From Gemmatimonadales bacterium (GTDB taxonomy: Bacteria > Gemmatimonadota > Gemmatimonadetes > Gemmatimonadales > GWC2-71-9): a stretch of 64,000 bases of DNA. Below the pieces are notes generated by a model. That model saw only the letters and a program-made list of their open reading frames with translations, was not told the DNA's origin and did no database searches. Of this stretch, positions 5 through 64,000 are shown one piece after another. The position numbers and the translations under genes were made by a program. Location: the NCBI GenBank assembly GCA_035703525.1, contig DASSYA010000017.1, forward strand, positions 171,304 through 235,303. Reading direction: 5' to 3'. The first letter of the stretch is position 1. Each line of letters begins with the position of its first letter.

Positions 5-2776
<2,772 letters not shown>

Positions 2777-6986: not shown

Positions 6987-9494
6987 ATGGCCACTCGACC
7001 AGCGCGTCCATCGATCCACAAGTTCGGGGGTGCCGCGCTCAAGGACGCGGGGTCCATGCTGGCCGTGACCCGGATCCTGGCCGAGCAGCCCACCCCACAG
7101 ATCGTCGTGGTCTCCGCGCTCGCCGGGGTCACGGATGCGTTGCTCGATCTGATCGCGGTCGCTGAATCGGGCGACCAGTCGGGTGCCGTCGGGCGAGCGG
7201 ATGCATTCCGCGCTCGTCACGAATCCTTCCTCGCCGCCCTGCTCCCGGCCACCCGCCGGGCGCCGATCCAGGCCGCGATCACCGAGATGAGTGACGAGCT
7301 CGTCGGATTGGCGCGGGCGCTGGCGGTCCTCCGGGAGGCATCGCCGCGGCTCCGGGATCATATCGTGGCCCGGGGCGAGCGGTTGAGCGCCCTGCTGCTT
7401 GCCGGTGCGTTGAGTCGCGCTCGCCAACCGGCCGAAGCGGTCGACCCTGGCGCGGTGATCATCACTGACGGCCCCCATGGCGGCGCCGCCCCGGTGGTCG
7501 ACGCGACCAGACGCGCGGCCCGGGCCACGCTTGAGCCGATGCTCGCTCGCGGAGTGACGCCGGTGATCCCGGGATTCCTGGGCCGCGCGCCGGGCGGTGG
7601 TCTCGCCACCCTTGGACGCGGTGGTTCCGATCTGACGGCGACGTCGCTCGGTCGGGCGATGACGTCACCCCAGGTCACCCTCTGGAAGGATGTCCCGGGC
7701 CTGCTCACGGCCGACCCGCGGATCGTCCCGGATGCCCGGCTCCTCGAGTTGGTGCACCCCACCGAAGCCGCCGAGCTCGCCTATTACGGCGCCAACGTCC
7801 TGCACCCGCGGGCGCTGCTTCCGCTTGCGGGCACCCGGACGGCGCTCCGCGTCCGTCCCTTCGGTGATCCGACCGCACCGGGGACCGAGATCAGTGCACG
7901 GCGAGAGAGCGCCCCGCCCCCGGTACGCTCGTTGTCGGCCGTGCGCGACCAGGCGCTGGTCACGGTGTCGGGCTCGGGCATCCTTGGTGTGCCGGGCATG
8001 TCGGCCCGCACGTTCGGCGCGCTTCAGGCGGCCGACATTTCCGTCTCACTGATCGCCCAGGCCTCGTCGGAGTACACGATCGACTTCACGGTGCCCGACG
8101 AGGTCGCGGAGCATGCCGTGGAGGTCCTGCATCGTGCCTTCCGCGCGGAGATTGCCCACGGGGAGCTCGAGGCGGTCCGGACACGGCGTGGGGTCGCGAT
8201 CCTGGCGGTGGTCGGGCTCCGGATGGCCGGGCATCCGGGCATCGCCGCCCGCGTCTTCGAGGCGCTCGAGCTGGCCGAGGTGAACGTGGTGGCGATCGCC
8301 CAGGGGTCGTCGGAGCACAACATCTCGATCGTGGTGGACACCGGCGCGGTCCCGGCCGGTCTTCGCCGCATCCATGCCGCGTTCCAGCTCGGCAAGGAGG
8401 GGGGGGGACGCCCGCGGCGGCGGACCGGCAAGGATGTGGTGTTGCTGGGCGCCGGGACCATCGGACGGGCGACCCTCGAGATGCTCGCGGCCGCCCCGGC
8501 ACGGTTCGGGATGCTGCGCGTGGTGGCGGTGGTCGATCGGACGGGGATGGTCGCGGATGCGGGCGGCTTCGACCCGGTGGCCCTGCGCGCGATTGCGGCG
8601 TGCAAGCGGGCTGGGGGGGGGGTCGCCGGTCTCCCGGGCGGGGTGCGCGGCACGCCGGCGGCGGTCCTCGCCACCCTGGCCCAGCAGGCGCTGATCCGTC
8701 CCGTGATCGCGGACCTCACCGCGGATGACAGCACGGCACTGCTCACGATGGTGGCGCGCGCCGGATTCGATGTGGTGCTCGCCAACAAACGGCCGGTCGC
8801 GGGGCCGTGGACCGAGTACCGGGCACTCCGCGATGCCTTGGCCGCCCACGGGGGCCGACTCCGTCACGAGGCGACGGTGGGCGCCGGGCTGCCCCTCGTG
8901 CTGGCGGTGGACCAGTTGCTGCGCACGGGCGACCGGGTGCACCGGCTCGAGGGCGTGCTCTCGGGGACCCTGGCCGCAGTGCTGACCAGCCTTGAGGATG
9001 GGGTCCCCTTCTCCGAGGCCGTCCTGGCGGCCGAGTCCGCCGGGATGACCGAACCGGATCCGCGCGACGACCTGCACGGCACCGACGTGGCCCGCAAGGC
9101 GCTCATTCTCGCCCGCATGCTCGGACAGCATCGCGAACTCCATGAGGTCGCGACCGAATCCCTCGTGCGCGGCACGGGAGGCGGTACCATGGCAGCCTGG
9201 CGGAAGACGCTTGCCCGGGATGATGCCTGGTGGCAGGCGCGCGTGGTCAGGGCCCGCGACAAGGGGAAGGTGTTGCGATACGTCGCCTCGATCACGGCCA
9301 GCAAGACCGAGGTGGGCCTCCACGAGGTCCCTCACGACCATCCGCTCGGTCAACTGCGCGGTCCGTCGAACCGGTTGGTGATCACCTCGGACCGCTACCA
9401 CGCGCATCCACTGGTGATCACCGGTCCCGGGGCCGGTCCGGAGGTCACGGCGACCGGCGTCGTGGCGGACCTCCTCTCCCTGACGGGCGCATGA
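6987..9494 (+). CDS. thrA: bifunctional aspartate kinase / homoserine dehydrogenase
   Basis: 835 aa. N-terminal amino-acid kinase domain (IHKFGGAALKDAGS), ACT-like middle region, and C-terminal homoserine dehydrogenase (EATVGAGLPLV). Followed by thrB and thrC with ATGA overlaps. Confidence 0.92.
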   Translation: MATRPARPSIHKFGGAALKDAGSMLAVTRILAEQPTPQIVVVSALAGVTDALLDLIAVAESGDQSGAVGRADAFRARHESFLAALLPATRRAPIQAAITEMSDELVGLARALAVLREASPRLRDHIVARGERLSALLLAGALSRARQPAEAVDPGAVIITDGPHGGAAPVVDATRRAARATLEPMLARGVTPVIPGFLGRAPGGGLATLGRGGSDLTATSLGRAMTSPQVTLWKDVPGLLTADPRIVPDARLLELVHPTEAAELAYYGANVLHPRALLPLAGTRTALRVRPFGDPTAPGTEISARRESAPPPVRSLSAVRDQALVTVSGSGILGVPGMSARTFGALQAADISVSLIAQASSEYTIDFTVPDEVAEHAVEVLHRAFRAEIAHGELEAVRTRRGVAILAVVGLRMAGHPGIAARVFEALELAEVNVVAIAQGSSEHNISIVVDTGAVPAGLRRIHAAFQLGKEGGGRPRRRTGKDVVLLGAGTIGRATLEMLAAAPARFGMLRVVAVVDRTGMVADAGGFDPVALRAIAACKRAGGGVAGLPGGVRGTPAAVLATLAQQALIRPVIADLTADDSTALLTMVARAGFDVVLANKRPVAGPWTEYRALRDALAAHGGRLRHEATVGAGLPLVLAVDQLLRTGDRVHRLEGVLSGTLAAVLTSLEDGVPFSEAVLAAESAGMTEPDPRDDLHGTDVARKALILARMLGQHRELHEVATESLVRGTGGGTMAAWRKTLARDDAWWQARVVRARDKGKVLRYVASITASKTEVGLHEVPHDHPLGQLRGPSNRLVITSDRYHAHPLVITGPGAGPEVTATGVVADLLSLTGA

Positions 9495-51619: not shown

Positions 51620-54600
51620 TCAGCCGATCTCGCCCTGCAGCTTGGCGATCCGGTCGCGGATCTCGCGCACCCGCGGTTGGAGCTTCGGGTCGGCGTTGGC
51701 CCAGAGTTCGGTGAACTGACTGTAGTAGTCGATGGCCTTGGCCTTGTTGCCCTTGTTCTCGTAGGCCTCGCCGAGGCGCTCCAGGATCTTGGCACGCCAC
51801 TGCCCGTCCGTGCCAGGCAAGGCTGCGGGTGTCGCCAGGAACTTCTCGTAGTAGACAATCACCGAATCCGTGCGCCCCAGTTCGAGGTGTGCGTTGCCAC
51901 GGACAAGGTCAGCGATGCGGGGCTCGAATGAGAACAGGCGTTCCGCCTGGTCGGCATACCGAATGGCATCTTCCCAACGCCCTTCCGCCATCGCGAGGTG
52001 CGCGGCATAGTCCGCGCGGCGACCCTCTGCATCCGAGGAGAAGCTGACCTGATCGCGCTCGAACCCGGCCATCGCTTCGCGCACCAGCGTCGGTTCCCTG
52101 AGGATGGCCCCGACGAACTTGATGAAGCCCCACGGCCGCTCGACTGGCGGGATCTCGGTCATCGGCACACGCGCCCGGGCCCGGGCGAGCGCGGCCAGCG
52201 TACTGGCCTTGGTGCCATACATCAGTTCGTAGTACACCGTGTCGAGCCCGATGCTCAGCAGGTTGCCGGGAGTCGGCTGCACCTTGTAGAGCGCGGCACT
52301 GTTTCTGGCCTGCCACCGCGCCGCCTCGGCGATCTGGCCACGCATCTCGGCGGTGGCCGTCAGCGCAGCGGTTGACCGGATCGCCTGCCGAACGGTCTTC
52401 GCCGAGGCGTCCACCGCGCGCGCGATCGAATCGGCTCCGGCGACATCCCCCTTCCCCCAGGCGACAAACCACTGCGCTTCCCAGAAGTCGTTGCTCTCCC
52501 CGAACGTGTTCCGGAAGGATGTGAGGGTGGAGTCGAGCGCGGCGCCCGAGCGGCCATTCAGGATTTGTGTCGTGATCAGGTTCGTGAACGCGCCACCGAA
52601 GGTATGCGGCAACCGGACCACGCGACGATAGAGTTCCTCGGCGCGGATGTCGTCGTTCATCTCACCCAGGATGACGGCCGCATTGTTGAGGGCCGAGGTG
52701 CTCAGGGTATCGAGCTTGGCGGCGGCCTCGTACGCGGCAAGCGCCTTCTCGCGATCGGGCGTCGGTCCCCGCGTATAGTAGAACCCCTCGGTGAGGAGGC
52801 GCTCCATCTCGGTCAGGCGGTCGCGGTGTCGATAGGCGGTCGAGATCGCGTTGATCATGCCGACCTGATCCCGACCCTCGTTGTTGAGCAGCACCGACAG
52901 CTTGCGCCATGCCATCGCGAACGACGTGTCGATGGTGACCGCCTCCCGGATCAACTCCATGCCGCGCTCGTTCTCGCCCTCCTCGTCGGCAAGGCGCGAG
53001 CCCTCGACGTACTTGCGGAGCGCGGCGAGCGAGGGGGTGGTGACCCGCTCGAGTTCGTTGCTCGCGCGGATCGACTTGAGCGACTCCCCGGCCTTGGCGC
53101 GGACGGCCTTCGACAAACGGCCGAGCGCCGGGAGGATCTCGTCCTCGTTGGACGCCTCCTCGCGGAACGAGGCGAGATCGGCGCCATCGAGGGCCGAGGC
53201 CAGCCGCGCCGTGATGACGTAACTCTTGCCGATCTCCGCAATGCCGCCATCGAGCACCGCCTTGGCGCCCTCACGCGTGGCGATCTCGCGGGCCAGGGCA
53301 TAGGGGACCGCCTCGTCCGGGGAGCGCTGCATCAGGGTGAGCGCCTCGCGGATTGCCGAGCGGGTCAGGACCGTGAGTGAGGTCGACTGCGCAAGATCGG
53401 TACGAAGTGCTTCAGCGACGGTGCCGCCGAGCGTCGAATCGCTGGGTGGCGAGGTGAAATCCGCGATCATCAGCGTCTCGCGATCACCGAAGGCGCCCTT
53501 CCCCTGGAGCGAGGCCATCGGCCCGATCCCCATCGCGCGCATCACCATGAACGCGAGGACCACGACGGCGAAGCCACCGACGGCGAACGCACCACCGAGC
53601 CAGGTGCGCCGCCACGAGACATGCGGACTCGCCTTCATCGCAAGCGTTGCCATCGTGCCCTGCGGGGATGGCGTGCGATTGGGTGTTGCGGTGAACGCCT
53701 TGTGCGTGGTCCGCTGGACGTAGGCCGTGAAGAGCAGCACCGGCAAGCCCGCGAGCATGACGCCGACCGCGCCGGGGAGGACCCAGTCGGGCAGGCCGAT
53801 CGCCTCACGAGCGGCCCACGCCGTCAGGGCGACGACGATCGTGGCGAAGGCCCAGAGTGCCACCGCGCGGCCGAGGCGGATCGGACCTCCACGCAGGATC
53901 TCGGGCACCGTCGCCCCGCTGCCGCTCGAGGTGATCGTGTCGAGGACCTGCACCAGCTCCGCGGAATCCCGGGGCCGGTCCTGGGGCTCCTTCTCGAGGC
54001 AGCGCATGACGAGGGCGGCGAGCGCGGGCGGGCAATCGGGGCGGAGTCCGAGAATATCCGGCGCGGGCTCCGTCATGTGCGCAGCGAGCAATTTCGTTGG
54101 CGTGGCAGCCACAAACGGTGTCCGGCCGGCCAGTGTCTCGAAGGCCATTACACCGAAGGCGTAGAGATCGGCGCGGTGGTCGGTGTCGGGATCGCCGGCG
54201 GCCTGTTCGGGTGCCATGTAGGCAGGCGTCCCGATCGAGGTGCCGACCTGGGTCAGCGCCTCGCCGTGGTCACCACCAGTGCGCGCAGCGTTGATCGCCT
54301 TGGCAATCCCGAAGTCGGTGACCGTGGCGCTCCCGGCCGAGAGGAGGACATTGTCAGGCTTGATGTCGCGGTGGACGATCCCCTGGGCATGGGCATAGGC
54401 GAGGGCCCGCGCCACGTCACGGAGGATGCTGACGGCCTCCCCGATCCCGACACCGCCCTTGGCCAGCCGATGGCGGAGCGAATCGCCATCGACATACGGC
54501 ATCGTGAACCAGGGGATGCCGCCGACATCGCCGGTGGTGAGCACCGGCACCACATGGGGATGCTGGAGCTGGGCGGCGAGGAGCACCTCGCGGCGAAAGC

Positions 54601-54775
54601 GTTCGACCGAAATGCCTGCGAGAAGCTCGGGAGCCAGGACCTTCACCACGACCCGGCGCTGGAGGGCATTCTCGCGCACGAGATAGGTCCTCGACATCCC
54701 TCCGCCACCCAACTCGCGCTCGAAGGTGTAGGCACCCGCGAGCGCCTGCTCCAGTCGCGGTCGGATGTCGTCCAT
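51620..54775 (-). CDS. Ser/Thr protein kinase with transmembrane segments and C-terminal TPR-repeat domain
   Basis: Hanks kinase motifs GGGGMSRTYL...VVVK, HRDIKPDNVLL, DFGIAK and GTPAYMAPE. Then TM helices and about 550 aa of TPR-like repeats. Start taken as ATG 54775 (MDDIRPRLEQ), with GTG 54844 as an alternative. Confidence 0.88.
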   Translation of the reverse strand: MDDIRPRLEQALAGAYTFERELGGGGMSRTYLVRENALQRRVVVKVLAPELLAGISVERFRREVLLAAQLQHPHVVPVLTTGDVGGIPWFTMPYVDGDSLRHRLAKGGVGIGEAVSILRDVARALAYAHAQGIVHRDIKPDNVLLSAGSATVTDFGIAKAINAARTGGDHGEALTQVGTSIGTPAYMAPEQAAGDPDTDHRADLYAFGVMAFETLAGRTPFVAATPTKLLAAHMTEPAPDILGLRPDCPPALAALVMRCLEKEPQDRPRDSAELVQVLDTITSSGSGATVPEILRGGPIRLGRAVALWAFATIVVALTAWAAREAIGLPDWVLPGAVGVMLAGLPVLLFTAYVQRTTHKAFTATPNRTPSPQGTMATLAMKASPHVSWRRTWLGGAFAVGGFAVVVLAFMVMRAMGIGPMASLQGKGAFGDRETLMIADFTSPPSDSTLGGTVAEALRTDLAQSTSLTVLTRSAIREALTLMQRSPDEAVPYALAREIATREGAKAVLDGGIAEIGKSYVITARLASALDGADLASFREEASNEDEILPALGRLSKAVRAKAGESLKSIRASNELERVTTPSLAALRKYVEGSRLADEEGENERGMELIREAVTIDTSFAMAWRKLSVLLNNEGRDQVGMINAISTAYRHRDRLTEMERLLTEGFYYTRGPTPDREKALAAYEAAAKLDTLSTSALNNAAVILGEMNDDIRAEELYRRVVRLPHTFGGAFTNLITTQILNGRSGAALDSTLTSFRNTFGESNDFWEAQWFVAWGKGDVAGADSIARAVDASAKTVRQAIRSTAALTATAEMRGQIAEAARWQARNSAALYKVQPTPGNLLSIGLDTVYYELMYGTKASTLAALARARARVPMTEIPPVERPWGFIKFVGAILREPTLVREAMAGFERDQVSFSSDAEGRRADYAAHLAMAEGRWEDAIRYADQAERLFSFEPRIADLVRGNAHLELGRTDSVIVYYEKFLATPAALPGTDGQWRAKILERLGEAYENKGNKAKAIDYYSQFTELWANADPKLQPRVREIRDRIAKLQGEIG

Positions 54776-54898
54776 GGGGGCCTGTCCGATGGGTTGGGAA
54801 GTGTCAAGTATGGCACCGGACGGCCGGTGAGGAAAGCCTTTCACCCCATCCGATCCGCGCCGAGGCCCTCATCTCCTGTATGGGCACTATTTTGGGGG

Positions 54899-55801
54899 AT
54901 GACCACTTCGTCTCGCATCGTCCGCATCGGACTCGTCCAGCAGCGGGTCGGCCCCGACCCTGCCGCCAACCTCGAGCGCGCCATCGAGGGCATTCGTGAG
55001 GCCGCAGCCAAGGGCGCCCGGATCGTCTGCCTGCAGGAGCTCTTCGGCTGGTACTACTTCTGCCAGCGGGAAGATCACGAATTCTTCAAGCTTGCCGAGC
55101 CGATCCCGGGACCCAGCTCGGAACGGCTCGCGGCCGTCGCGAAGGAGCTCGGGGTCGCCATTGTCGCCTCGCTGTTCGAGAAGCGGGCCGAGGGGCTCTA
55201 CCACAACACCGCGGCGATGCTCGACGCCGATGGCTCGTACATGGGGAAGTATCGCAAGATGCACATTCCCGATGACCCGCAGTTCTACGAGAAGTTCTAC
55301 TTCACACCGGGCGACCTCGGCTTCCAGCGGTGGGACACGCAGCACGCGCCGATCGGTACACTGATCTGCTGGGACCAGTGGTATCCGGAGGCCGCACGCC
55401 TCACGGCGCTCACCGGTGCCCAGGTGCTCTTCTATCCGACGGCGATCGGGTGGCTTCCCGGCGAGAAGGCCGAGTTTGGTGCGCGTCAGCAGGCGTCGTG
55501 GGAGACGATCCAGAAGAGTCACGCCGTGGCGAACGGCGTGTTCGTCTGCGCCGTCAATCGAACCGGCCACGAGGTGTTGCCCGGGAGTGAGCCGGGGCAC
55601 CCCGGGATCGAATTCTGGGGAGGCTCGTTCATCTGCAACCCGAGTGGCGAGGTGATCGCCAAGGCGGGTCAGGGCGAGGAGGTCCTGGTCGCCGACTGTG
55701 ACCTGGCCGAGGTCGATGTGGCGCGGACGCACTGGCCGTTCCTCCGGGACCGCCGCATCGATGCCTACGGCGACATCACGCGGCGGTATATCGATGAGTG
55801 A
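54899..55801 (+). CDS. aguB: N-carbamoylputrescine amidase (nitrilase superfamily)
   Basis: CN-hydrolase Glu-Lys-Cys triad context (CLQELF, YRKMHIP, LICWDQWYPE). Adjacent to agmatine deiminase. The upstream 425 aa of track ORF 53621..55801 are antisense to the kinase and are rejected. Confidence 0.85.
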   Translation: MTTSSRIVRIGLVQQRVGPDPAANLERAIEGIREAAAKGARIVCLQELFGWYYFCQREDHEFFKLAEPIPGPSSERLAAVAKELGVAIVASLFEKRAEGLYHNTAAMLDADGSYMGKYRKMHIPDDPQFYEKFYFTPGDLGFQRWDTQHAPIGTLICWDQWYPEAARLTALTGAQVLFYPTAIGWLPGEKAEFGARQQASWETIQKSHAVANGVFVCAVNRTGHEVLPGSEPGHPGIEFWGGSFICNPSGEVIAKAGQGEEVLVADCDLAEVDVARTHWPFLRDRRIDAYGDITRRYIDE

Positions 55802-56921
55802 GGATGGGGCGCGCACGGAGGGAGACGGGCGAGGAGGCCCCGCCGCCCTCCCTTCGGTCGGGGGTGGGGCGGCAGGCATGCTCCGCATGCCTGCCGAATG
55901 GGAGCGGCACCGGGGGACCTGGCTCTCGTGGCCGCACAAGGAGGCATCGTGGCCGGGCAATTTCGGTCCGATTCCCGGCATCGTCGCCGAGATGGTGCGC
56001 CACCTCGTGCCCGGCGAGGAGGTCCACATCAATGTCGCCGATGCCGCCATGGAGCAGGCAGCGGGCGAGGTCCTGCTCACGGCTGGTGTCTCGACCGACA
56101 ATGTCTTCTTCCATCATGTGCCGACCAACGACGCCTGGTGCCGTGACCACGGCCCGATCTTCGTCGAACGCTCGCTCTCCGGGGGGGGGATGGAGCAGAT
56201 CGCCCTCGACTGGGGCTTCAATGCATGGGGAGACAAGTACCCGCCCTATGATCTTGACAACCGCGTCCCCACGCGCGTGGCCGGGATCCTGGGCATCCCG
56301 AGCATCGCCCCCGGGATGATCCTCGAGGGTGGCTCGATCGACGTGAACGGGGCCGGCACCCTGATCACGACCGAGGCCTGCCTCCTCAACCCGAATCGGA
56401 ACCCCGAGCGCAGCAAGGCCGAGATCGAAGCGATGCTGCGCGCCTATCTGGGCGTGCGCACCATCCTGTGGCTCGGCGATGGCATTGTCGGTGATGACAC
56501 CGACGGGCATGTCGATGATCTCACGCGGTTCGTCGACGCGCGGACGGTGGTGACCGTGGTCGAGGACGATCCTGATGACGTCAACCATGACGTGCTGCGG
56601 GACAACCTCGCCCGGCTCCGAACGATGCAGATCCAGGATGGCACCCCGCTCCGGGTCATCGAACTGCCGATGCCCCGGCCCGTGATCCACGAGGGTGAGC
56701 GCCTCCCCGCGAGCTATGCCAATTTCTACATCGGCAACGAGGTGGTCCTGGTGCCCGGCTACGACCCCGAGCGAGACGAGATCGCTCGCCGGACCCTGCA
56801 AGGGCTCTTCCCGACCCGCCGGGTCGTGGTGATCGATTGCACGGCGATGGTCTGGGGCCTCGGGGCCTTTCACTGCCTCACGCAACAATGGCCGCTGACA
56901 GCGATCTCGACGGCGAGCTGA
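55794..56921 (+). CDS. aguA: agmatine deiminase
   Basis: RMPAEWERH N-terminal motif and C-terminal catalytic Cys context GAFHCLTQQ. The start is ambiguous: ATG 55794 overlaps the aguB stop, while ATG 55878/55887 fit homologue N-termini better but lie inside a perfect hairpin. Confidence 0.85.
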   Translation: MSEDGARTEGDGRGGPAALPSVGGGAAGMLRMPAEWERHRGTWLSWPHKEASWPGNFGPIPGIVAEMVRHLVPGEEVHINVADAAMEQAAGEVLLTAGVSTDNVFFHHVPTNDAWCRDHGPIFVERSLSGGGMEQIALDWGFNAWGDKYPPYDLDNRVPTRVAGILGIPSIAPGMILEGGSIDVNGAGTLITTEACLLNPNRNPERSKAEIEAMLRAYLGVRTILWLGDGIVGDDTDGHVDDLTRFVDARTVVTVVEDDPDDVNHDVLRDNLARLRTMQIQDGTPLRVIELPMPRPVIHEGERLPASYANFYIGNEVVLVPGYDPERDEIARRTLQGLFPTRRVVVIDCTAMVWGLGAFHCLTQQWPLTAISTAS

Positions 56922-56943
56922 CGCTCGCCGCTGAATGGGTCCC

Positions 56944-56974
56944 TGCAACCCTTCGGCCCAGGGCACCGTCCAAG
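56944..56974 (+). promoter_or_regulatory. ECF-type promoter TGCAACC-N17-GTCCAAG upstream of the ECF sigma gene
   Basis: Exact bipartite match, with the same spacing, to 60749-60779. Sequence verified through the translation of track ORF 56935..57549. Confidence 0.6.
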
Positions 56975-57033
56975 CTGACGTGACCCATACGATGACCTTT
57001 TCGACGCCCGTGGCCGGTGTACCGAGCCTCGAC

Positions 57034-57549
57034 ATGGAAACCGCCCTGGTCCGCCGTGCCGCCGCCGGCGACGAACACGCCTTCGAGGGGCTGTACCGCC
57101 GTCACGTCGACCGAATCCACTCACTGGTCCGGCGGATGACGGATGCGGTGCAGGCGGATGAATTGACCCAGGACGTCTTCGTCCGCGCCTGGCAGAAGCT
57201 CACGACGTTCCGTGGCGAGAGTGCCTTCGGGACCTGGCTCCACCGACTCGCGGTCAATGTCGTCCTCAGCCATCGTCGACGCGACCGCACCGAACGGGAC
57301 TGGTTGCTCCCGACCGATGACATCCTGCCCAGCCTCGGTCAGCGCGCCGTGCATCCGGGCGTCGCGATGGATCTGGAGGATGCGATGGCCAGACTGCCCG
57401 AAGGTGGCCGGCAGGTCTTCATCCTGCACGACATCGAAGGCTGGACCCACGAGGAGATCGCCGAGCAACTCGGCCTGGTCGCCGGGACCTCGAAATCACA
57501 GTTGTCGCGGGCACGTGCCGCGCTCCGGAGAATGCTCGATGGTTATTGA
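57034..57549 (+). CDS. ECF-type RNA polymerase sigma factor
   Basis: Region 2 (AFEGLYRRHVDRIHSLVRRM...DELTQDVFVRAWQK) and region 4 (WTHEEIAEQLGLVAGTSKSQLSRARAALRRML). Start is ATG 57034 or 56992. ATG 56935 lies upstream of the predicted promoter. Confidence 0.85.
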   Translation: METALVRRAAAGDEHAFEGLYRRHVDRIHSLVRRMTDAVQADELTQDVFVRAWQKLTTFRGESAFGTWLHRLAVNVVLSHRRRDRTERDWLLPTDDILPSLGQRAVHPGVAMDLEDAMARLPEGGRQVFILHDIEGWTHEEIAEQLGLVAGTSKSQLSRARAALRRMLDGY

Positions 57550-58084
57550 ACCCGATCGCCCCGACCCGCGTCTCGCCGGCCTGATCGACGGTCTCGTCGA
57601 TCGTGCTCCGGCGTCTGATCTCTGGCCCGGCATCTCCGCCCGGCTGACGCCTCACCGCCGCGGTACCGTGGTGATGCGGTGGCCCACCGCGCTGGCTGCC
57701 GGTTTGGCCCTCGTGACGGGATCCGTCGGCCTCACCCTGCTCATGCAGGCTCGACCCGTGGCCAGCCGTCCCCTCCCCGACCACCCGGCCCCGACCGGAC
57801 CCGAGGCGGTGCTGCCGGCCGGATTCGTGCAAGCGACCGGCACCCTGCAGCGGGCGATTGACGACCTCGAGCAGACCCTGGCGACGACGACCCAGGCCCT
57901 CGATCCCACCACCCGTGACCGGGTCCGCGAAGCCATCGCGACACTCGACGCGGCGATTGATGATGCACGCCAGCGCGCCATGGGGGCACCGACCGACCTC
58001 GGCGCGGCACGCTACCTCACGCGCGCGATGCAGCGGAAGCTCGATGTGCTCCAGAGCGTCGCCACCCTGACGCACCGGAGCTGA
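57539..58084 (+). CDS. putative membrane-anchored anti-sigma factor
   Basis: Overlaps the end of the sigma gene. Single TM helix (WPTALAAGLALVTGSVGLTLLM), with a short cytoplasmic N-terminus and a helical periplasmic C-terminus. No ZAS motif. Confidence 0.6.
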   Translation: MVIEPDRPDPRLAGLIDGLVDRAPASDLWPGISARLTPHRRGTVVMRWPTALAAGLALVTGSVGLTLLMQARPVASRPLPDHPAPTGPEAVLPAGFVQATGTLQRAIDDLEQTLATTTQALDPTTRDRVREAIATLDAAIDDARQRAMGAPTDLGAARYLTRAMQRKLDVLQSVATLTHRS

Positions 58085-58938
58085 TGATGCACGTCCTCCT
58101 CACCGCGGCCCTGCTCGGCGCGCCGCTCGCCGCCCAGGCACGCGATACGACGGTCCGGCTCACACCCGGCACGACCGTCGAGGTGTCGAGCTTTTCGCAG
58201 CCGATCATGGTCACCGGGACGTCGGGTGACTTGCTCACGGTCCGTGGCGCGACGATCGATGTGGGCCGGCGCACGGTCGAGATCGACGGACAGGTGTTCG
58301 GTCGGGGCCCGAAGGGTCCGATCATGATTCAGCTGCCCACATCGGCCCGCCTCACGATCGATGCCGTCTCGGGTCCGGTCACCGTGACGAATGCACCGGA
58401 CCGACTCGAGATCGATGCGGTGGACGGTCCGGTGAACATCACTGGTGGCCGCGGCGAGATGAGCATCTCCGCCACCGGCGAGATCAGCGTGGCGAATTTC
58501 GCCGGCGAACGACTGTCGATCAACGGACTCGCCGGCGGCATCATCGTCCGCGGCGCCAGCGGCATCGTGGAGATCGAGAACGTCAATGGCCCGATTCTCC
58601 TCGAGCGCATGGCGAGTCGCGACGTCCAGATCAGTTCGGTCAACGGTCAGGTGCGGTGGCGCGGGGACTTCGACCCGGCGGGTCGGTTCACGATCGAGTC
58701 GCACAACGGTGGCATCGAGCTCGTGGTGCCGGCGACCCTCAGCGCCAGGCTCCAGATCGAGACCTTCAACGGCGGCCTCTCCTCCGAGATCCCGGCGCGG
58801 ATCACCGGCGACGACCGGAGACGGGACGGCCCCCCGACGGAGCGAAGCATCACCGCCACCTATGGCCGCGGTCAGGCGGCGATCGACATCACGACCTTCA
58901 ACGGTGGCATTCGCATCCTGCGGCTCGGCGGGACCTGA
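58084..58938 (+). CDS. DUF4097 (Toastrack / putative adhesin) domain protein 1
   Basis: Signal peptide and repeated beta-helix-like units (IDAVSGPVTV, IDAVDGPVNI, SSVNGQVRW, ETFNGGLS, TTFNGGIRI). TGATG overlap with the anti-sigma gene. Confidence 0.7.
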   Translation: MMHVLLTAALLGAPLAAQARDTTVRLTPGTTVEVSSFSQPIMVTGTSGDLLTVRGATIDVGRRTVEIDGQVFGRGPKGPIMIQLPTSARLTIDAVSGPVTVTNAPDRLEIDAVDGPVNITGGRGEMSISATGEISVANFAGERLSINGLAGGIIVRGASGIVEIENVNGPILLERMASRDVQISSVNGQVRWRGDFDPAGRFTIESHNGGIELVVPATLSARLQIETFNGGLSSEIPARITGDDRRRDGPPTERSITATYGRGQAAIDITTFNGGIRILRLGGT

Positions 58939-58946
58939 TCCCGCAG

Positions 58947-60659
58947 TCAGTCGAAGGCGGGTGGCCGGCGGCGATGCACGTTCGAGAGCATCTGCCAGGC
59001 ATGCGCCATCCGCAGGCACAGATCTTCCCTCCAGAGCGCCCCGATGATGGTGAGGCCCTGTTGCGCACCATCCTCCGGTCCCCCGATCGGGACCGTCACC
59101 GCCGGATGCCCGGTGAGGTTGGTGGTCGCCAGCGCCGTCTCGGTCATCGGTGGTACCAGGATGACATCCACACCCGTGAAGATGGCGTGTACACGACGGC
59201 TGGTCAGGGTTCGGACCCGATTTGCCTGCACATATTGCACGGCGGGGATGAAGTGCGCCGCACGAAGCACATTGGGCCTCGCGTCCACCCCCTGGTCGAC
59301 CAGCCGATCGTCGGCACCGTGGGCGACGATCTCCTCGAAGGCGGCGGCACCCTCCACTCGCATGATGATGTCCATGGCGGTGGTCGGGATGTCGGTCGGC
59401 CACGCAACCGGCCGCATGCCGACACCCGCACGACGCAGCGTCTCCACCGCCGCCGCGACAAGTGGACGTTCGTGCGCATCCCCCGTGAGCAGGTCCGGGT
59501 GGAGTCCCACGCGGATCTCGGCGAGTGCCTGGTCGGGATCGAACGCGAACGGCATCGGATGCGACGACGGGTCCCGGGCGTCCTCGCCCTGGATGGCAGC
59601 GAACACCACCGCCAGATCTTCGGCACTGCGCGCGATCGGTCCGAGCTTGTCGAGCGTCCAGGCGAGTGACATCGCGCCGAAGCGCGACACCCGTCCGTAG
59701 GTCGGTCGCAGGCCGCTGACCCCGCATCGCGTGGCGGGAGCGAGGATGCTTCCCAGTGTCTCGGAACCGATCGCGAATGGCAGCATCCCTGCGGCCACTG
59801 CAGCGGCAGAGCCTGCCGATGATCCGCTCGCGCCCTCACTCACTCGCCACGGGTTGCGGGTCCGGCCGCCATACCAGAGATCACCATAGGCCAGCTCGCC
59901 GAGCGCGAGCTTCGCGACGAGGACGGCCCCGGCTGCGTCGAGTCGCTCGACCACGGCGGCGGTCTCCGGCAGGGTACGCTTCCGGTACATCGGGGTGCCC
60001 CAGGTGGTGGGGTAGTCCGGCACGGCCAGAAGGTCCTTCGCCCCCCAGGGTATCCCGTGCAGTGGCCCACGCCATTCGCCACGCGTCGCCTCGGCATCGA
60101 GCAGATCGGCCTGGTGGAGCGCCCGCGCAGCGGTCAAGGTCACGACCGCATTCAAGTCGGGATTGAGCCGCTCGAGACGGCTGAGCGTCCGCTCGGTCAG
60201 CGCCCGAACCGTGAGACGGCCCGTGCGAAGCAGTGCTCCCAGTTCGGCGATCGTGGCGAACCCCAGATCGGCGTCCGTCGCGATCGTCGGGACCGCGGCC
60301 TCACGAACCCGGACAGCTCCGGCCGGTGGAATCCCGGCAGTCTCCCCTGCCGGGACCGGGTCAAACCGGAACGCCGGAGGGACATCATTGGGAATGGGAG
60401 CCTTCTCGAGCGTGGCGTAGGCACGGAGGGCTTCCTCGAGGTGCCCCAGCATCTGGTCGCGGTCCGCGTCGCTGAAGGAGAGGCCGAGCACCTTCTCGGC
60501 CGCCGCGACTTGCTCCTTCGTGATCCGGAGGAGCTGCGCCGTGTCATGCGAATGCCCCATGGACCCGAGGGTGGCCCAGCTCCGTTCGGCCACCGTGAGT
60601 GGCAGCCCTGCCGCCGCACAGGACGTCAGGAAGGCTCGGCGATCGATTGGGCTCCTCAT
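58947..60659 (-). CDS. amidase-signature family amidase with Tat signal peptide
   Basis: Twin-arginine motif IDRRAFLTS, AS-family Gly/Ser-rich motif GASGSSAGSAAAVAAG and a catalytic-Ser region. GGGAG lies about 10 nt before ATG 60659. Confidence 0.82.
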   Translation of the reverse strand: MRSPIDRRAFLTSCAAAGLPLTVAERSWATLGSMGHSHDTAQLLRITKEQVAAAEKVLGLSFSDADRDQMLGHLEEALRAYATLEKAPIPNDVPPAFRFDPVPAGETAGIPPAGAVRVREAAVPTIATDADLGFATIAELGALLRTGRLTVRALTERTLSRLERLNPDLNAVVTLTAARALHQADLLDAEATRGEWRGPLHGIPWGAKDLLAVPDYPTTWGTPMYRKRTLPETAAVVERLDAAGAVLVAKLALGELAYGDLWYGGRTRNPWRVSEGASGSSAGSAAAVAAGMLPFAIGSETLGSILAPATRCGVSGLRPTYGRVSRFGAMSLAWTLDKLGPIARSAEDLAVVFAAIQGEDARDPSSHPMPFAFDPDQALAEIRVGLHPDLLTGDAHERPLVAAAVETLRRAGVGMRPVAWPTDIPTTAMDIIMRVEGAAAFEEIVAHGADDRLVDQGVDARPNVLRAAHFIPAVQYVQANRVRTLTSRRVHAIFTGVDVILVPPMTETALATTNLTGHPAVTVPIGGPEDGAQQGLTIIGALWREDLCLRMAHAWQMLSNVHRRRPPAFD

Positions 60660-60748
60660 GCCATGCACGCTCCCAGGGGTCGCGGCCCGTGGATTCGACC
60701 GCATTCACACGATACGCCTGACACACCCACCCAGGTTGAGTCCGGGGA

Positions 60749-60779
60749 TGCAACCATCGGCACCACCTCGGTGTCCAAG
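60749..60779 (+). promoter_or_regulatory. ECF-type promoter TGCAACC-N17-GTCCAAG upstream of DUF4097 genes 2 and 3
   Basis: Exact bipartite match to 56944-56974. Coordinates derived from track ORF 60520..61644. It lies 50 nt upstream of ATG 60829, which has an AAGGA SD. Confidence 0.6.
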
Positions 60780-60828
60780 GGGTGCGTCCAAGATCCCTAC
60801 TCCGCTCCCCAGACCCAAGGACACCACA

Positions 60829-61644
60829 ATGGTTCGTCTCCTGCTCGCCGCCGTTGCCGTCACCGGGTTCGGCCTGTCGCGGCACCTCACCTCCCCCGAC
60901 CCCGCGACGGCTGGGACCTCACTCCGGGCCCAGGATGACTACCGGTTCACGAAAGTGCTCAGGCCAGGCGACGAGCTGGGGATCTCGAACGTCGAGGGCG
61001 ACGTCACGGTGACCCAGGGTACCGGGACCACTGCGGAGATCTCGGTCCGCAAGCGAGTGATTCGGGGTGATGGTGACCTGGTCTCGGCGATCATGGAAGA
61101 GACCAGCGACGGGATCCGGGTCTGTACCGTCTACCTGAATCGACCGGACGAGGCGCGGACGAGTTGCCGCGGGGGCACTCACATCGATCGGCGCCGCGAG
61201 CCACTCGAGGTCGAGATGACGTACACCGTCACGATCCCGCGTGGCGCACGACTCGATGCCACCACCGTCGATGGCGACCTTCGCATCGAAGGGCTCGACA
61301 CGCCAGCCGAGATCACGACGGTCGATGGGGATGTCACCTATCGAGGCGTGATGCCCGCACACCTCAGTTCGGTTGACGGCGACGTGCTGCTCGACATCGA
61401 GGGGCAGGTGGCGCACGACACCCGCATCAGCACGGTCGATGGCAGCATCACGTTGCATCTCGACCGCGATGTCGCGGTCGATGTGGCCGCGACCAGCGTC
61501 GACGGTGACCTCGAAAGCGATTTCCCGCTGACCGTCAAGGGCAAGTGGGGCCCGCGCACCATGCGCGGCACGATCAACGGCGGGGGTGCGTCCATGCGCC
61601 TCTCCACGGTCGACGGATCAATCCGGATCCGTCGGGCCCACTGA
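60829..61644 (+). CDS. DUF4097 (Toastrack) domain protein 2
   Basis: Signal peptide and repeated TVDGD/SVDGD units. Shares RVCTVYL...RTSCRGG and VKGKWGPRTMRGTI with the next gene. Confidence 0.7.
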   Translation: MVRLLLAAVAVTGFGLSRHLTSPDPATAGTSLRAQDDYRFTKVLRPGDELGISNVEGDVTVTQGTGTTAEISVRKRVIRGDGDLVSAIMEETSDGIRVCTVYLNRPDEARTSCRGGTHIDRRREPLEVEMTYTVTIPRGARLDATTVDGDLRIEGLDTPAEITTVDGDVTYRGVMPAHLSSVDGDVLLDIEGQVAHDTRISTVDGSITLHLDRDVAVDVAATSVDGDLESDFPLTVKGKWGPRTMRGTINGGGASMRLSTVDGSIRIRRAH

Positions 61645-61671
61645 CCCCTTCTTTCCCAGGAGCCTTGCCTG

Positions 61672-62454
61672 ATGCTACGCCATGCGACCACCCTGCTCGG
61701 CCTCACGATCATCGCCTTGCCACTCAAGGCACAGGAGACCCACTTCGCCCGGACCATGTCGCCCGGTGAGCGACTCGAGCTCTCGAACCTCAACGGCCAG
61801 ATCCGCGTGACCCAGGGAACGGGACGCGACTTCGACCTCGTCGCCACCACGGTGGTGAAGTCGGGCGATCCACGCCTCGTCAAGGTGATCCTCGAGGAAG
61901 GCCAGGGCTTCGTCCGGGTCTGCACGATCTACCTGACACGCGACCCGAATCGGACCAGCTGTCGTGGTGGCAACTCGACGGATGACTGGACCAATCGGCG
62001 GGGGGAGCGTCTCGACATCAGCATCGACTACGAGGTGCGTGCGCCAGCGGGCGTCAAGCTGGAGGTGGACAATGTCAACGGCGGGGTCGTGCTGCGAGGC
62101 CTCGACACCCCCGCGACTGTCGAGACGGTCAACGGCGGGATCGCATTCGATGGGGTCGGTGCGCACCGACTCTCGACAGTCAACGGACGGATCACCGGTC
62201 GCTTCACGAGTTCGAGCTGGAGCGGGGACCTTGACCTTTCGACGGTCAACGGAGCCATCGACCTGACCCTCCCGGCCGACTTCGGCGCCGAGATCCGCGG
62301 CCAGACCGTCAACGGCGGGATCGACTTCGGGGAGTTTCCGGTCACCATGAAGGGGAAGTGGGGGCCCAGGACGTTCACCGGCACGATCGGCTCGGGCGGG
62401 CGGCGGGTGAACATCGAGACCGTGAATGGCTCGGTGCGGTTGCAACGGCGGTAG
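61672..62454 (+). CDS. DUF4097 (Toastrack) domain protein 3 (tandem paralog of protein 2)
   Basis: Signal peptide and repeated TVNGG/TVNGR units. Shares RVCTIYL...RTSCRGG and MKGKWGPRTFTGTI. Confidence 0.7.
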   Translation: MLRHATTLLGLTIIALPLKAQETHFARTMSPGERLELSNLNGQIRVTQGTGRDFDLVATTVVKSGDPRLVKVILEEGQGFVRVCTIYLTRDPNRTSCRGGNSTDDWTNRRGERLDISIDYEVRAPAGVKLEVDNVNGGVVLRGLDTPATVETVNGGIAFDGVGAHRLSTVNGRITGRFTSSSWSGDLDLSTVNGAIDLTLPADFGAEIRGQTVNGGIDFGEFPVTMKGKWGPRTFTGTIGSGGRRVNIETVNGSVRLQRR

Positions 62455-62471
62455 GAGTCTAGATTGTCCGG

Positions 62472-62864
62472 ATGGACAACTTCTTCACGACCGATGGCCT
62501 TGCCGCGTGGCGAGGCCATCTGCTGCATTCGACCGACTTCGCGGAGGCGGCGCGCGGCTGGAGTGGCACCCTGTTGCTCCGGGAGTCCGCCACCGGCGGC
62601 GATCCACGACGGGCATGGATCTCCCTCGAGGATGGTCGACTCCTCGAGCTCAGGGTCGGCACGGACGAGGATGAGGCCGTGGCGGAATTCGTGCTCGCGG
62701 CCGAGGCCGAGATCTGGCGCAGTCTCGTCGATGGCTCGCGCGATCTCGCGAAGGCTGCGTTCACCGGCGAGCTCAGACTCGAACGGGGCTCGGTGCTGCG
62801 TCTCTTGCCGCATGCCCGCGCGGCAGCGGCGTTGTTGCGGGCGGCACGGGGGGCTGCAATGTGA
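62472..62864 (+). CDS. SCP2 sterol-binding-like small protein
   Basis: 130 aa. The pattern ...AEFVLAAEAEIWRSLVDGSRDLAKAAFTGELRLERG resembles the SCP2/alkyl-sulfatase C-terminal fold. Weak, from memory. Confidence 0.4.
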   Translation: MDNFFTTDGLAAWRGHLLHSTDFAEAARGWSGTLLLRESATGGDPRRAWISLEDGRLLELRVGTDEDEAVAEFVLAAEAEIWRSLVDGSRDLAKAAFTGELRLERGSVLRLLPHARAAAALLRAARGAAM

Positions 62865-62927
62865 CCATTCGGGCTCGACTCGAGTCTCCCTGATGCGTTG
62901 AACCCGAGCGATCAGGGAGCCCATTCG

Positions 62928-64000
62928 ATGAAGCGTCGATTCACCGTCAGCCTCACGATCTGTGGCGTCCTTCTGGCTGCCGCGTGCGCCGACTCCCCGA
63001 CCCGGATCGGTTTCGGTCCTCCGAGCAGGATCGAGGTCGTTTCCGGTGGCGCTCAGTCACAGTTGGCGGGATACCCGCTCGATCAGGCTGTCGTACTGCG
63101 TGTGGTCGACGAGCGCGGCCTGCCAGTCGCGGGGGTGCCACTCACGGTATCGACCGTCACACCTGCCGCGCAGCTCTTCCTGGATACCAAGACAACTGAT
63201 CAGCAGGGGAAGCTCTCATTCCATTGGCGGCTGGGCGCAGTACTCGGCCAACAGGTGGTACGGATCGAGGCGCCTGGTGTGGCCAGTGGCATGTCGACCC
63301 AGGTCTCGGCGAGCGCAACCGGGAGCGCGGTCCGCGCGATCTCCGGCGGATCGCCAGGACTGTGTGCGGTCTATTCCGATGGCCGAATCGGCTGCTGGAA
63401 GGTCGACCGCGGCATCCCGACAGCCCCTCCCACCGTCCATCCGGTCGAGACCACGCTCCGGTTCACATCCCTCACCCTGATCACAACCCCTGCGTCCGAC
63501 ACTCCCGCCAAGGGATGTGCGATCGCGGAGTCGGGGCGAGTCTGGTGCTTCGATCTTGATCAGGATCACTGGACCGTGGACAACATGCGCGAGGTCCCCG
63601 GAGACTACGACAACATGCAATCGCTGGAGAGTGCCCGGAACGGGGGCACGAGCTCGTTCGGTGGCGGCTTCTGCGGGCTGGATCGCGAGGGACATGCCTG
63701 GTGTTGGGGAGAGAACGTGCATGACCGGCTCGGCTTCCCGAACATTGGACCGATCCCAGTGGCCACACGGGTTCCGATCCCGGGAACGCTGTCAACGCTC
63801 TCCCTCGCCCTCACCCACGGGTGTGCCACACAGGTCGATGGCAGAACTTGGTGCTGGGGCTCGAACGCCACCGGTGAGCTCGGACGGGCGGGTACGGACC
63901 AGGACCCGATCGACCTGGCCCCGATGCCGATTGATTCACCGCTCCGGTTCGAGCGGGTGTTGACGATCTATCTCGGCAGCTGCGGGATCACGGTGGCTGA
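62928..64000 (+). CDS. lipoprotein with Ig-like (Big) N-terminal domain and RCC1-like repeats; 3'-truncated by window end
   Basis: Not in the ORF track because it has no stop. I translated it by hand from ATG 62928 with no stop through 64000. Lipobox LLAAAC, a Big-like segment (VVSGGAQSQLAGYPLDQAVVLRVVDERGLPVAGVPLTV), and RCC1-like repeats (HAWCWGENVHDRLG, RTWCWGSNATGELG). Confidence 0.65.
   Translation, partial: MKRRFTVSLTICGVLLAAACADSPTRIGFGPPSRIEVVSGGAQSQLAGYPLDQAVVLRVVDERGLPVAGVPLTVSTVTPAAQLFLDTKTTDQQGKLSFHWRLGAVLGQQVVRIEAPGVASGMSTQVSASATGSAVRAISGGSPGLCAVYSDGRIGCWKVDRGIPTAPPTVHPVETTLRFTSLTLITTPASDTPAKGCAIAESGRVWCFDLDQDHWTVDNMREVPGDYDNMQSLESARNGGTSSFGGGFCGLDREGHAWCWGENVHDRLGFPNIGPIPVATRVPIPGTLSTLSLALTHGCATQVDGRTWCWGSNATGELGRAGTDQDPIDLAPMPIDSPLRFERVLTIYLGSCGITVA

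Follow-up and report, generated by a model that had tools for sequence, protein, structure and literature searches.

The 64,000-nucleotide stretch of a Gemmatimonadales genome analysed here (contig DASSYA010000017.1, hereafter the window) carries two copies of the bipartite motif TGCAACC-N17-GTCCAAG, one upstream of a gene encoding a sigma factor of the extracytoplasmic function (ECF) family and the other upstream of a pair of genes encoding proteins with DUF4097 (Toastrack) domains (DUF4097-2 and DUF4097-3). Our analysis indicates that both sites, here called promoter 1 and promoter 2, are very probably promoters read by the adjacent ECF sigma factor, and that the locus, judged from its sequence, is an ordinary, well-conserved case of an RpoE-type autoregulated ECF sigma factor with a local two-promoter regulon. 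A cognate autoregulatory promoter with a second copy had been proposed in an initial annotation of the window, and the proposal is upheld by a footprint that precedes the sigma gene in no fewer than 72 of 80 related loci, by an independently trained position weight matrix (PWM), by the recurrence of the second site in the clade of the window, and by co-variation of the -10 elements.

Both copies lie on the plus strand at the positions originally given for them (Table 1), directly upstream of plus-strand genes, and no third copy was found in the window; when the gap between the heptamers was relaxed to 15–19 nt, the same two matches only were recovered. Base composition predicts 3.9 × 10−4 exact matches in 2 × 64 kb, close to the rough chance estimate of about 10−3 made at the outset, and 0 of 100 dinucleotide-preserving shuffles of the window contained any match. 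The spacers of the two copies are identical at 6 of 17 positions and their flanks at 20 of 80, where composition predicts 28%. This likeness, limited to the two heptamers, implies that the two sites are constrained at the same 14 positions, and it would be expected if selection acted on the -35 and -10 elements alone. A segmental duplication was rejected as the origin of the pair, since spacer and flanks match at chance level only. Promoter 1 lies 22 nt past the stop codon of an agmatine deiminase gene and falls within the longest open reading frame (ORF) called for the sigma gene, whereas promoter 2 is placed in the divergent intergenic gap between a minus-strand amidase gene and DUF4097-2. 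Its position upstream of the latter gene agrees with the initial annotation; the distance is 49 rather than 50 nt, as the start codon is ATG 60829 and not 60830.

A protein-guided scan using one genome per species recovered 80 loci with relatives of the sigma factor (47–78% identity over the best aligned segment), the best relatives of the window being Gemmatimonadales metagenome-assembled genomes. The expression AAC[CT]-N17-[AG]TC, for which the chance expectation is about 2% of 160-nt upstream regions, matched a single site 5' of the sigma gene in 68 of these 80 loci. The consensus of the sites, nTnCAACCyT-N14-y(A/G)TCCAAy, has a fixed 17-nt gap (occasionally 18) and includes conserved positions outside the expression used for the search, namely a T two bases before CAACC (78%), a T two bases after it (81%), and the A ending TCCAA (95%). 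With a PWM trained solely on these foreign sites upstream of sigma orthologues, with no sequence of the window, matches of at least 14 bits were detected upstream of the sigma gene in 72 of the 80 loci, plus 4 located just beyond the distance filter. Over about 1 Mb of related loci there were 88 such matches, 76 of them upstream of sigma genes and most of the remaining ones just 3' of DUF4097-1, the Toastrack gene that follows the anti-sigma gene, with about five unexplained. The motif follows the sigma orthologues through at least 72 genomes of several phyla, and such a conserved bipartite promoter 5' of its own sigma gene points to autoregulation. Among close relatives (alignment A1), TGCAACC, the -10 core, the spacing and a CGTGA just downstream are invariant, and the spacer and flanks vary.

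Judged by its sequence, CAACCyT-N14-rTCCAA is an RpoE-type motif, and some relatives carry an AlgU-like TCTGA -10. Promoters of Escherichia coli sigmaE have the -35 element GGAACTTTT, the -10 element (T/C)GGTCAAAA, and a spacer of 15–19 nt with 16 preferred (PMC1312014); aligned with them, the window shows GCAACCC, a 17-nt gap and TCCAA. The suggestion that an AAC-containing -35 and a GTC-containing -10 fit an ECF promoter is thus borne out by a consensus that matches the defined sigmaE promoter type.

When both strands of the window were scanned with the PWM, promoter 1 (21.3 bits) and promoter 2 (18.1 bits) were the top two matches. The third match was promoter 1 itself, re-scored with a 16-nt gap, and no other site in the 64 kb scored above 10.2 bits; shuffled windows gave 0.12 matches of at least 16 bits per window. 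Logan contig L081 (SRR25158252), identical to the window from 55361 to 64000, runs 8 kb further, and no further site was found in these 8 kb. The motif is therefore rare and bound to its context in the window, the 8 kb beyond it and the roughly 1 Mb of related loci. A search of the window for further regulon members, allowing up to 3 mismatches in the motif, returned 8 sites versus 4.6 expected, the extra ones in coding or odd contexts. No promoter-like sites were found by a sigma-70 scan of 56500–63200, and a terminator scan of the same region gave one weak stem at 61631, not above the shuffled expectation. As for the heptamer TGCAACC alone, it occurs 11 times in the window versus 4.6 expected, a number reached by 1 of 100 shuffles; the nine copies outside the two promoters lack a -10 match at the proper spacing.

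The second promoter is also conserved in relatives. Each of the five closest genomes carries the motif 5' of its DUF4097-2 orthologue, with scores of 18.7 (L001), 16.6 (L002), 13.2 (L003), 12.3 (L004) and 16.5 (L005) bits; in L002 and L004 the sites are located about 200 nt upstream, antisense within the amidase coding region. In a second, separate metagenome collection, where a scan with the DUF4097-2 protein alone returned no relatives and the orthologue alignment (A3) as query found them, both promoters were present in L082, L088, L090, L094 and L102, and the DUF4097-2-side promoter was found on the short contigs L083, L087, L091 and L093. The sites on the DUF4097-2/3 side from this collection scored 16.6–22 bits, all on the gene strand; the eight other than that of L093 were on the plus strand and covered the range 17.6–22 bits. 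Homologous copies of promoter 2 are thereby present in about 14 contigs of the clade of the window. In the 32 more distant loci, no motif was detected between DUF4097-1 and the next DUF4097 gene, where the genes abut, and the distant loci L095 and L099 carry the sigma promoter only. Regarding the antisense sites (L002 11654–11687, L004 11629–11662, L093 378–411), they overlap codons for the amidase peptide SLDAPEGA, and their AAC and CAA come from the rare codons GTT (2 of 43–50 valine codons) and TTG (2–3 of 49–57 leucine codons). Each of these three loci may hold a promoter within a coding sequence that is read from the other strand.

Several -10 variants occur across genomes (GTCCAAG, GTCCAAC, GTCACAA, GTCTCAA, ATCCAA and others), and they vary together at the two promoters: the mean number of mismatches per 10 positions was 2.5 between the promoters of one genome versus 4.5 between genomes (permutation p < 10−5; p = 0.001 for the heptamer alone). 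Two unrelated sites drifting independently would not show such co-variation, which would be expected from a single reader with a drifting preference and also from gene conversion between the two promoters.

The presumed reader belongs to the ECF family by its domains, PF04542 and PF08281 above their cut-offs in a protein of 185–189 aa, in keeping with the family pattern of about 170–200 aa with sigma2 and sigma4 only and no region 1.1 or region 3. It scores 91.8 bits with the sigma70-ECF model TIGR02937 (cut-off 42.9) and 93.9 bits with the RpoE model TIGR02939, far below the cut-off of 236.15 bits for RpoE/AlgU orthologues. The closest solved structures are AlgU (6in7), followed by M. tuberculosis SigE, with E. 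coli RpoE (1or7) and SigW also close.

The start of the sigma gene had to be revised. An automatic gene caller applied to L081 put it at 56935, the longest-ORF start, which was rejected because it would swallow promoter 1. According to the initial annotation, the promoter forces the start to ATG 56992 or ATG 57034; the former is conserved, but the latter was discarded because its codon is not, being CTT in L001, and the peptide upstream of it, MTFSTPVAGVPSLD, is conserved. In 11 of 11 loci of the clade (the window, L001–L005, L082, L088, L090, L094 and L102), an in-frame GTG, at 56980 in the window, lies 7 nt past the last A of the -10. The gap from this GTG to the conserved ATG is 12 or 15 nt, both multiples of three, the second codon after GTG is mostly ACN and varies mainly at the wobble position, and the GTG forms part of the invariant CGTGA found 5–6 nt past the -10, in frame with the sigma gene. 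In the wider family, the distance from the -10 to the first in-frame start codon is 5–12 nt for about 50 of 72 loci, ATG +9 being the commonest arrangement (20 loci); a minority of loci instead combine an ATG at +32 with a GGGAG Shine-Dalgarno sequence.

Promoters of E. coli sigmaE have a discriminator of 5–6 nt and a purine at +1 (PMC1312014), which would place +1 of promoter 1 at 56979–56980; position 56980 is a G, the first base of the GTG in frame with the sigma gene. We slightly favour a sigma mRNA that is leaderless from GTG 56980; a 12-nt leader ahead of ATG 56992 would be equally compatible with the DNA. The distances in the wider set suggest that leaderless or near-leaderless sigma mRNAs may be the rule in this orthologue family. 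For mycobacteria and Deinococcus, leaderless mRNAs with AUG or GUG as start codon are well documented (PMC4633059, PMC4007540).

At promoter 2, +1 is predicted at 60784–60786, so that the leader would measure about 45 nt and include AAGGA, 8 nt 5' of ATG 60829. The extra GTCCAAG box reported downstream of this promoter is present at 60786–60792, but it is not conserved, being absent from 12 of the 14 orthologous promoters. Instead, L090 has a tandem GTCTGAA-T-GTCTGAA (about 4095–4111), in which its own -10 is repeated with an 8-nt period, and in the window the -10 heptamer GTCCAAG is repeated with a 13-nt period. Two exact -10 repeats among 14 promoters exceed chance (about 10−3 each), with a geometry that differs between the genomes. 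The box was rejected as a second promoter, as the heptamer 17 nt upstream of it is ACCACCT, the PWM score is below 10 and there is no acceptable -35. A role as a sigma-dependent pause element was likewise rejected, because the box does not keep a constant distance from +1 in the window and L090; a literature search on ECF-dependent pausing gave no results. The box probably has no function, although one might speculate that a -10 box repeated at +1, as in the window and L090, acts on sigma still bound to the early elongation complex.

The anti-sigma factor is a further peculiarity of the clade. The protein from the window has no match in Pfam or NCBIfam, including the RseA family, and no PF13490 match even at E ≤ 0.1, which leaves it outside the ZAS/zf-HC2 class I. 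It is, however, homologous in tblastn searches, from about residue 11–24 on, to zf-HC2 anti-sigmas of L009, L020, L065 and others, in which the similarity begins only past the zinc-finger region, and those of L009, L020 and L065 match PF13490 with E-values from 1e-11 to 4e-7. The anti-sigmas of the 11 clade loci lack about 45 N-terminal residues, including H-x3-C-x2-C, and retain a DLWPGI-containing helix, the transmembrane helix and a periplasmic helical domain. Sequence comparison thus points to an anti-sigma derived from a zf-HC2 anti-sigma whose zinc-finger N-terminus was lost in this clade.

Some of these data weigh against two promoters read by the local sigma factor. The anti-sigma has no zinc-finger helices, the part with which canonical class I anti-sigmas bind sigma, and its inhibition of sigma is uncertain; the autoregulation is deduced from the position of promoter 1, in an uncultured organism known from assemblies alone. 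The clade contig L085 has no promoter 2, the site in L102 precedes the second and not the first of the distal DUF4097 genes, and those in L003 and L004 score just 13.2 and 12.3 bits. Moreover, the -10 blocks used in the co-variation test were aligned by hand, and the rarity of the motif, like the size of the regulon, refers to the window and the related loci. With respect to the leaderless mRNA, leaderless GUG starts are inefficient in some bacteria. Finally, a paralogous ECF sigma of the same specificity could read either site.

This last point leads to an alternative that we consider improbable, in which the sites are ECF promoters read by another sigma factor encoded elsewhere, a paralogue of overlapping specificity or a sigma acting upstream in a cascade, and the adjacent sigma gene is a target and not an autoregulator. 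Paralogous ECF loci do occur side by side, as L032 and L044 each have a second sigma-DUF4097 locus, that of L044 with its own motif-type site just 3' of its DUF4097 gene, and overlap among ECF promoters is well known, an example being the shared sigmaWXY binding consensus (PMC3498285). Nevertheless, a motif that accompanies the sigma orthologues in at least 72 genomes of several phyla argues for a local reader, the co-variation of the -10 elements within genomes is simplest with one, and no other ECF sigma gene is present in the 64-kb window.

From sequence, a bipartite promoter and a bipartite direct-repeat operator are formally indistinguishable, so the heptamers might also belong to a dispersed repeat element or serve as operator for a DNA-binding regulator that is no sigma factor. 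We regard this as very improbable: the half-sites differ and form neither a palindrome nor a direct repeat, the gap is held at 17 nt (occasionally 18) around a free spacer sequence, the orientation always agrees with the downstream gene, the commonest distance to the start codon is that at which a transcription start site (TSS) would be expected, the consensus matches the experimentally defined sigmaE promoter, and the flanks show no homology to repeat elements. Least credible of all is a second copy that is a coincidental 14/14 match with no function. One could argue for it that a single window was examined after the fact and that GTCCAAG alone is not enriched there (4 observed versus 6.3 expected), but the composition-based expectation and the shuffles speak against it, the site is intergenic and correctly oriented, and about 14 other contigs have an equivalent site 5' of their orthologue, which effectively refutes it.

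The genes around the two promoters are listed in Table 1. DUF4097-1 and DUF4097-2 exceed the Pfam gathering score for Toastrack, and DUF4097-3, with 40.6% identity to DUF4097-2 (tblastn E = 2e-51), is its paralogue; all three show weak similarity to LiaX and LiaG. Their N-termini, read by eye, resemble signal peptides or membrane anchors (MMHVLLTAALLGAPLAAQA in DUF4097-1), and the three proteins are apparently exported or membrane-anchored and periplasmic. The position of DUF4097-1 directly after the anti-sigma gene is shared by most of the 80 loci. In the window this gene converges with the amidase gene, their stop codons being separated by 8 nt, and the scan of 56500–63200 showed no terminator-like structure between them; read-through from promoter 1 would run antisense to the entire amidase gene. 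The amidase gene itself is not under the motif.

Table 1. Features of the sigma factor locus, with coordinates in the window.
Feature	Position	Strand	Remarks
Agmatine deiminase gene	ends 56921	+	immediately 5' of the sigma gene
Promoter 1, TGCAACC-N17-GTCCAAG	56944–56974	+	-35 TGCAACC 56944–56950, -10 GTCCAAG 56968–56974; exact match
ECF sigma gene	ORF from 56935, proposed start GTG 56980, end 57549	+	Pfam Sigma70_r2 and r4_2
Anti-sigma gene	57539–58084	+	181 aa, single-pass membrane protein; first 11 nt shared with the sigma gene
DUF4097-1	58084–58938	+	PF13349, 37.5 bits (cut-off 22.9)
Amidase gene	58947–60704 (start 60704 or 60659)	-	PF01425, E = 5.5e-74; Tat-type RR signal
Promoter 2, TGCAACC-N17-GTCCAAG	60749–60779	+	exact match; precedes DUF4097-2
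Extra GTCCAAG box	60786–60792	+	starts at about +1 to +3 of promoter 2
DUF4097-2	60829–61644	+	PF13349, 53.1 bits; AAGGA Shine-Dalgarno 8 nt before ATG
DUF4097-3	61672–62454	+	PF13349, 21.1 bits, just under the cut-off of 22.9; 27 nt past DUF4097-2
SCP2-like small protein gene	62472–62864	+	weak PF02036 match, below cut-off; 17 nt past DUF4097-3
Big/RCC1 gene	62928 onwards	+	

The mini-regulon originally drawn for this locus, consisting of the sigma, anti-sigma and DUF4097-1 genes plus DUF4097-2 and DUF4097-3, is supported by the conserved motif sites. The Big/RCC1 gene, which had been given as a possible member, was discarded as a part of the module because no homologue of it was found in any of 102 related loci. 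The SCP2-like gene, named as a further possible member, is syntenic in most loci of the clade but inverted in L091, L092, L094 and L102, and in the window it is probably co-transcribed with DUF4097-2 and DUF4097-3.

Other neighbours were observed as well. A CN-hydrolase (carbamoylputrescine-amidase-like) gene and the agmatine deiminase gene lie directly upstream (53621–56921), where the 726-aa ORF listed with its start at 53621 is artefactual, GC-rich DNA leaving such frames open, and the deiminase gene is syntenic with the sigma gene in most members of the clade (L001, L003–L005, L082, L088, L094 and L102). About 2.5–6 kb past the end of the window (L081 11167–14586) there is a divergent pair of envelope-modification genes with no copy of the motif, one of the VirJ family and the other encoding an MprF-like lysyl-phosphatidylglycerol synthase (domains LPG_synthase_TM and LPG_synthase_C). 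In L001, a 14.1-bit motif (1215–1248, minus strand) is located about 45 nt 5' of a secreted esterase-like ORF (VKLYRALFLLSLGG), some 6.7 kb from the sigma gene; this ORF may be an extra regulon member there, and the window has no equivalent site.

As to the history of the locus, the sigma/anti-sigma/Toastrack module is widespread in Gemmatimonadota and also present in Acidobacteriota, Eisenbacteria and Xanthomonadales, with the order sigma, anti-sigma, DUF4097-1, DUF4097-2/3 conserved very widely. To judge from their gene arrangement, the 32 more distant loci are single uninterrupted operons behind one promoter. The amidase gene separates the operon halves in the window, L002, L004, L005, L090, L094 and L102, and on the short contigs L091 and L093 it adjoins a DUF4097-2/3 gene; L001, L003, L082, L088 and all the distant loci lack it at this place. 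The internal promoter is found throughout the clade, with or without the amidase gene. In the simplest history, promoter 2 and the amidase insertion would have arisen near the base of the clade, and the amidase gene would have been lost later in some lineages.

Second motif copies were also seen in other branches, which implies that a second cognate promoter next to the operon was gained more than once. Those of L056 (10042–10075), L067 (6061–6094), L072 (10020–10053) and L044 (5362–5395, minus strand) lie just 3' of DUF4097-1 and precede a gene for a conserved small secreted protein (169–207 aa, GPPW[IV]SIELPANP) with no Pfam match. In L065, a 22.6-bit motif (8530–8563) is located between the sigma and anti-sigma genes and would permit separate transcription of the anti-sigma gene and the genes downstream of it.

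In the scheme that we infer, from sigma dependence and TSSs to the leaderless translation, the inducing signal and the role of the Toastrack proteins, the membrane anti-sigma would keep sigma inactive in the resting state, until an envelope signal frees it. The sigma-RNA polymerase holoenzyme would then bind TGCAACC/GTCCAAG of promoter 1, and transcription of the sigma, anti-sigma and DUF4097-1 genes, probably beginning at G 56980 with a leaderless sigma mRNA, would establish positive autoregulation. At promoter 2, the same holoenzyme would direct transcription of DUF4097-2, DUF4097-3 and probably the SCP2-like gene, on a transcript with a 5' untranslated region of about 45 nt and a normal Shine-Dalgarno sequence, and this promoter would keep the distal Toastrack genes under sigma control in the clade of the window. 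The output would be three exported Toastrack (beta-helix) proteins forming a small envelope-stress module; by analogy with known systems, a role in envelope stress is our best guess for it. Taken all together, an undescribed Gemmatimonadales ECF lineage with exported Toastrack output, a leaderless sigma mRNA with its GTG at +1, an anti-sigma lacking zinc-finger helices, and a second promoter co-evolving after the split by the amidase is a combination that we propose only tentatively and with some doubt. If true, it would constitute an ECF-run analogue of the Lia/Psp envelope modules in which Toastrack domains are extracytoplasmic, contrary to current prediction.

Beyond this combined proposal, the analysis corrects the annotated start of the sigma gene, as the longest-ORF call used in a public assembly swallows the promoter, and gives three DUF4097 genes of unknown function a defined regulator. 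It also provides a usable promoter model for the sigma/anti-sigma/Toastrack module (CAACCyT-N14-rTCCAA, 17-nt gap) and a clean natural example of a regulon held together by a second cognate promoter when its operon splits, with the promoters co-varying. To Toastrack biology it adds a regulator-linked, apparently periplasmic protein set. The current understanding of ECF sigma factors is not overturned, and a specialist will not be surprised. The main text of Casas-Pastor et al. 2021 contains no entry for DUF4097 or Gemmatimonadetes, and a literature search for DUF4097 together with ECF returned Listeria papers only.

Compared with known systems, the locus resembles those of E. coli sigmaE (rpoE-rseABC) and P. 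aeruginosa AlgU in having a two-domain ECF sigma with a positive autoregulation that is here predicted, and in the gene order of sigma, membrane anti-sigma and periplasmic protein. The promoter architecture is also like that of sigmaE, here TGCAACCyT, 17 nt and GTCCAA, with CAACC in place of GAACTT at the -35. On the other hand, the sigma factor is no RpoE orthologue, its anti-sigma is unrelated to RseA and MucA, and the downstream genes encode Toastrack proteins instead of RseB and RseC.

A second parallel is found in Bacillus subtilis, where yvlABCD is an operon of the core sigmaW regulon (PMC3498285) and both YvlB and LiaG are Toastrack proteins (PMC11237479). There, as predicted here, an ECF sigma controls a Toastrack gene in an envelope-stress response, with the difference that the Toastrack genes of the window lie next to the sigma gene and would form the main part of its local output. 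The sigmaW promoter consensus, TGAAAC-N16-CGTA, differs from the motif described here. Toastrack proteins recur as partners of Psp and Lia envelope-stress systems, and their domains have been argued to be generally intracellular (PMC11237479); the proteins encoded in the window, in contrast, carry N-terminal signal-like peptides, and, unlike LiaG, LiaF and LiaX in their systems, they have no PspC, LiaI or two-component partner at the locus. Finally, ECF sigmas usually autoregulate and are encoded together with their regulators and targets (PMC7826278), and the locus follows the pattern of the ECF groups of Staron and Casas-Pastor, in which the sigma factor, its upstream promoter motif and the neighbouring genes are conserved together (PMC7826278).

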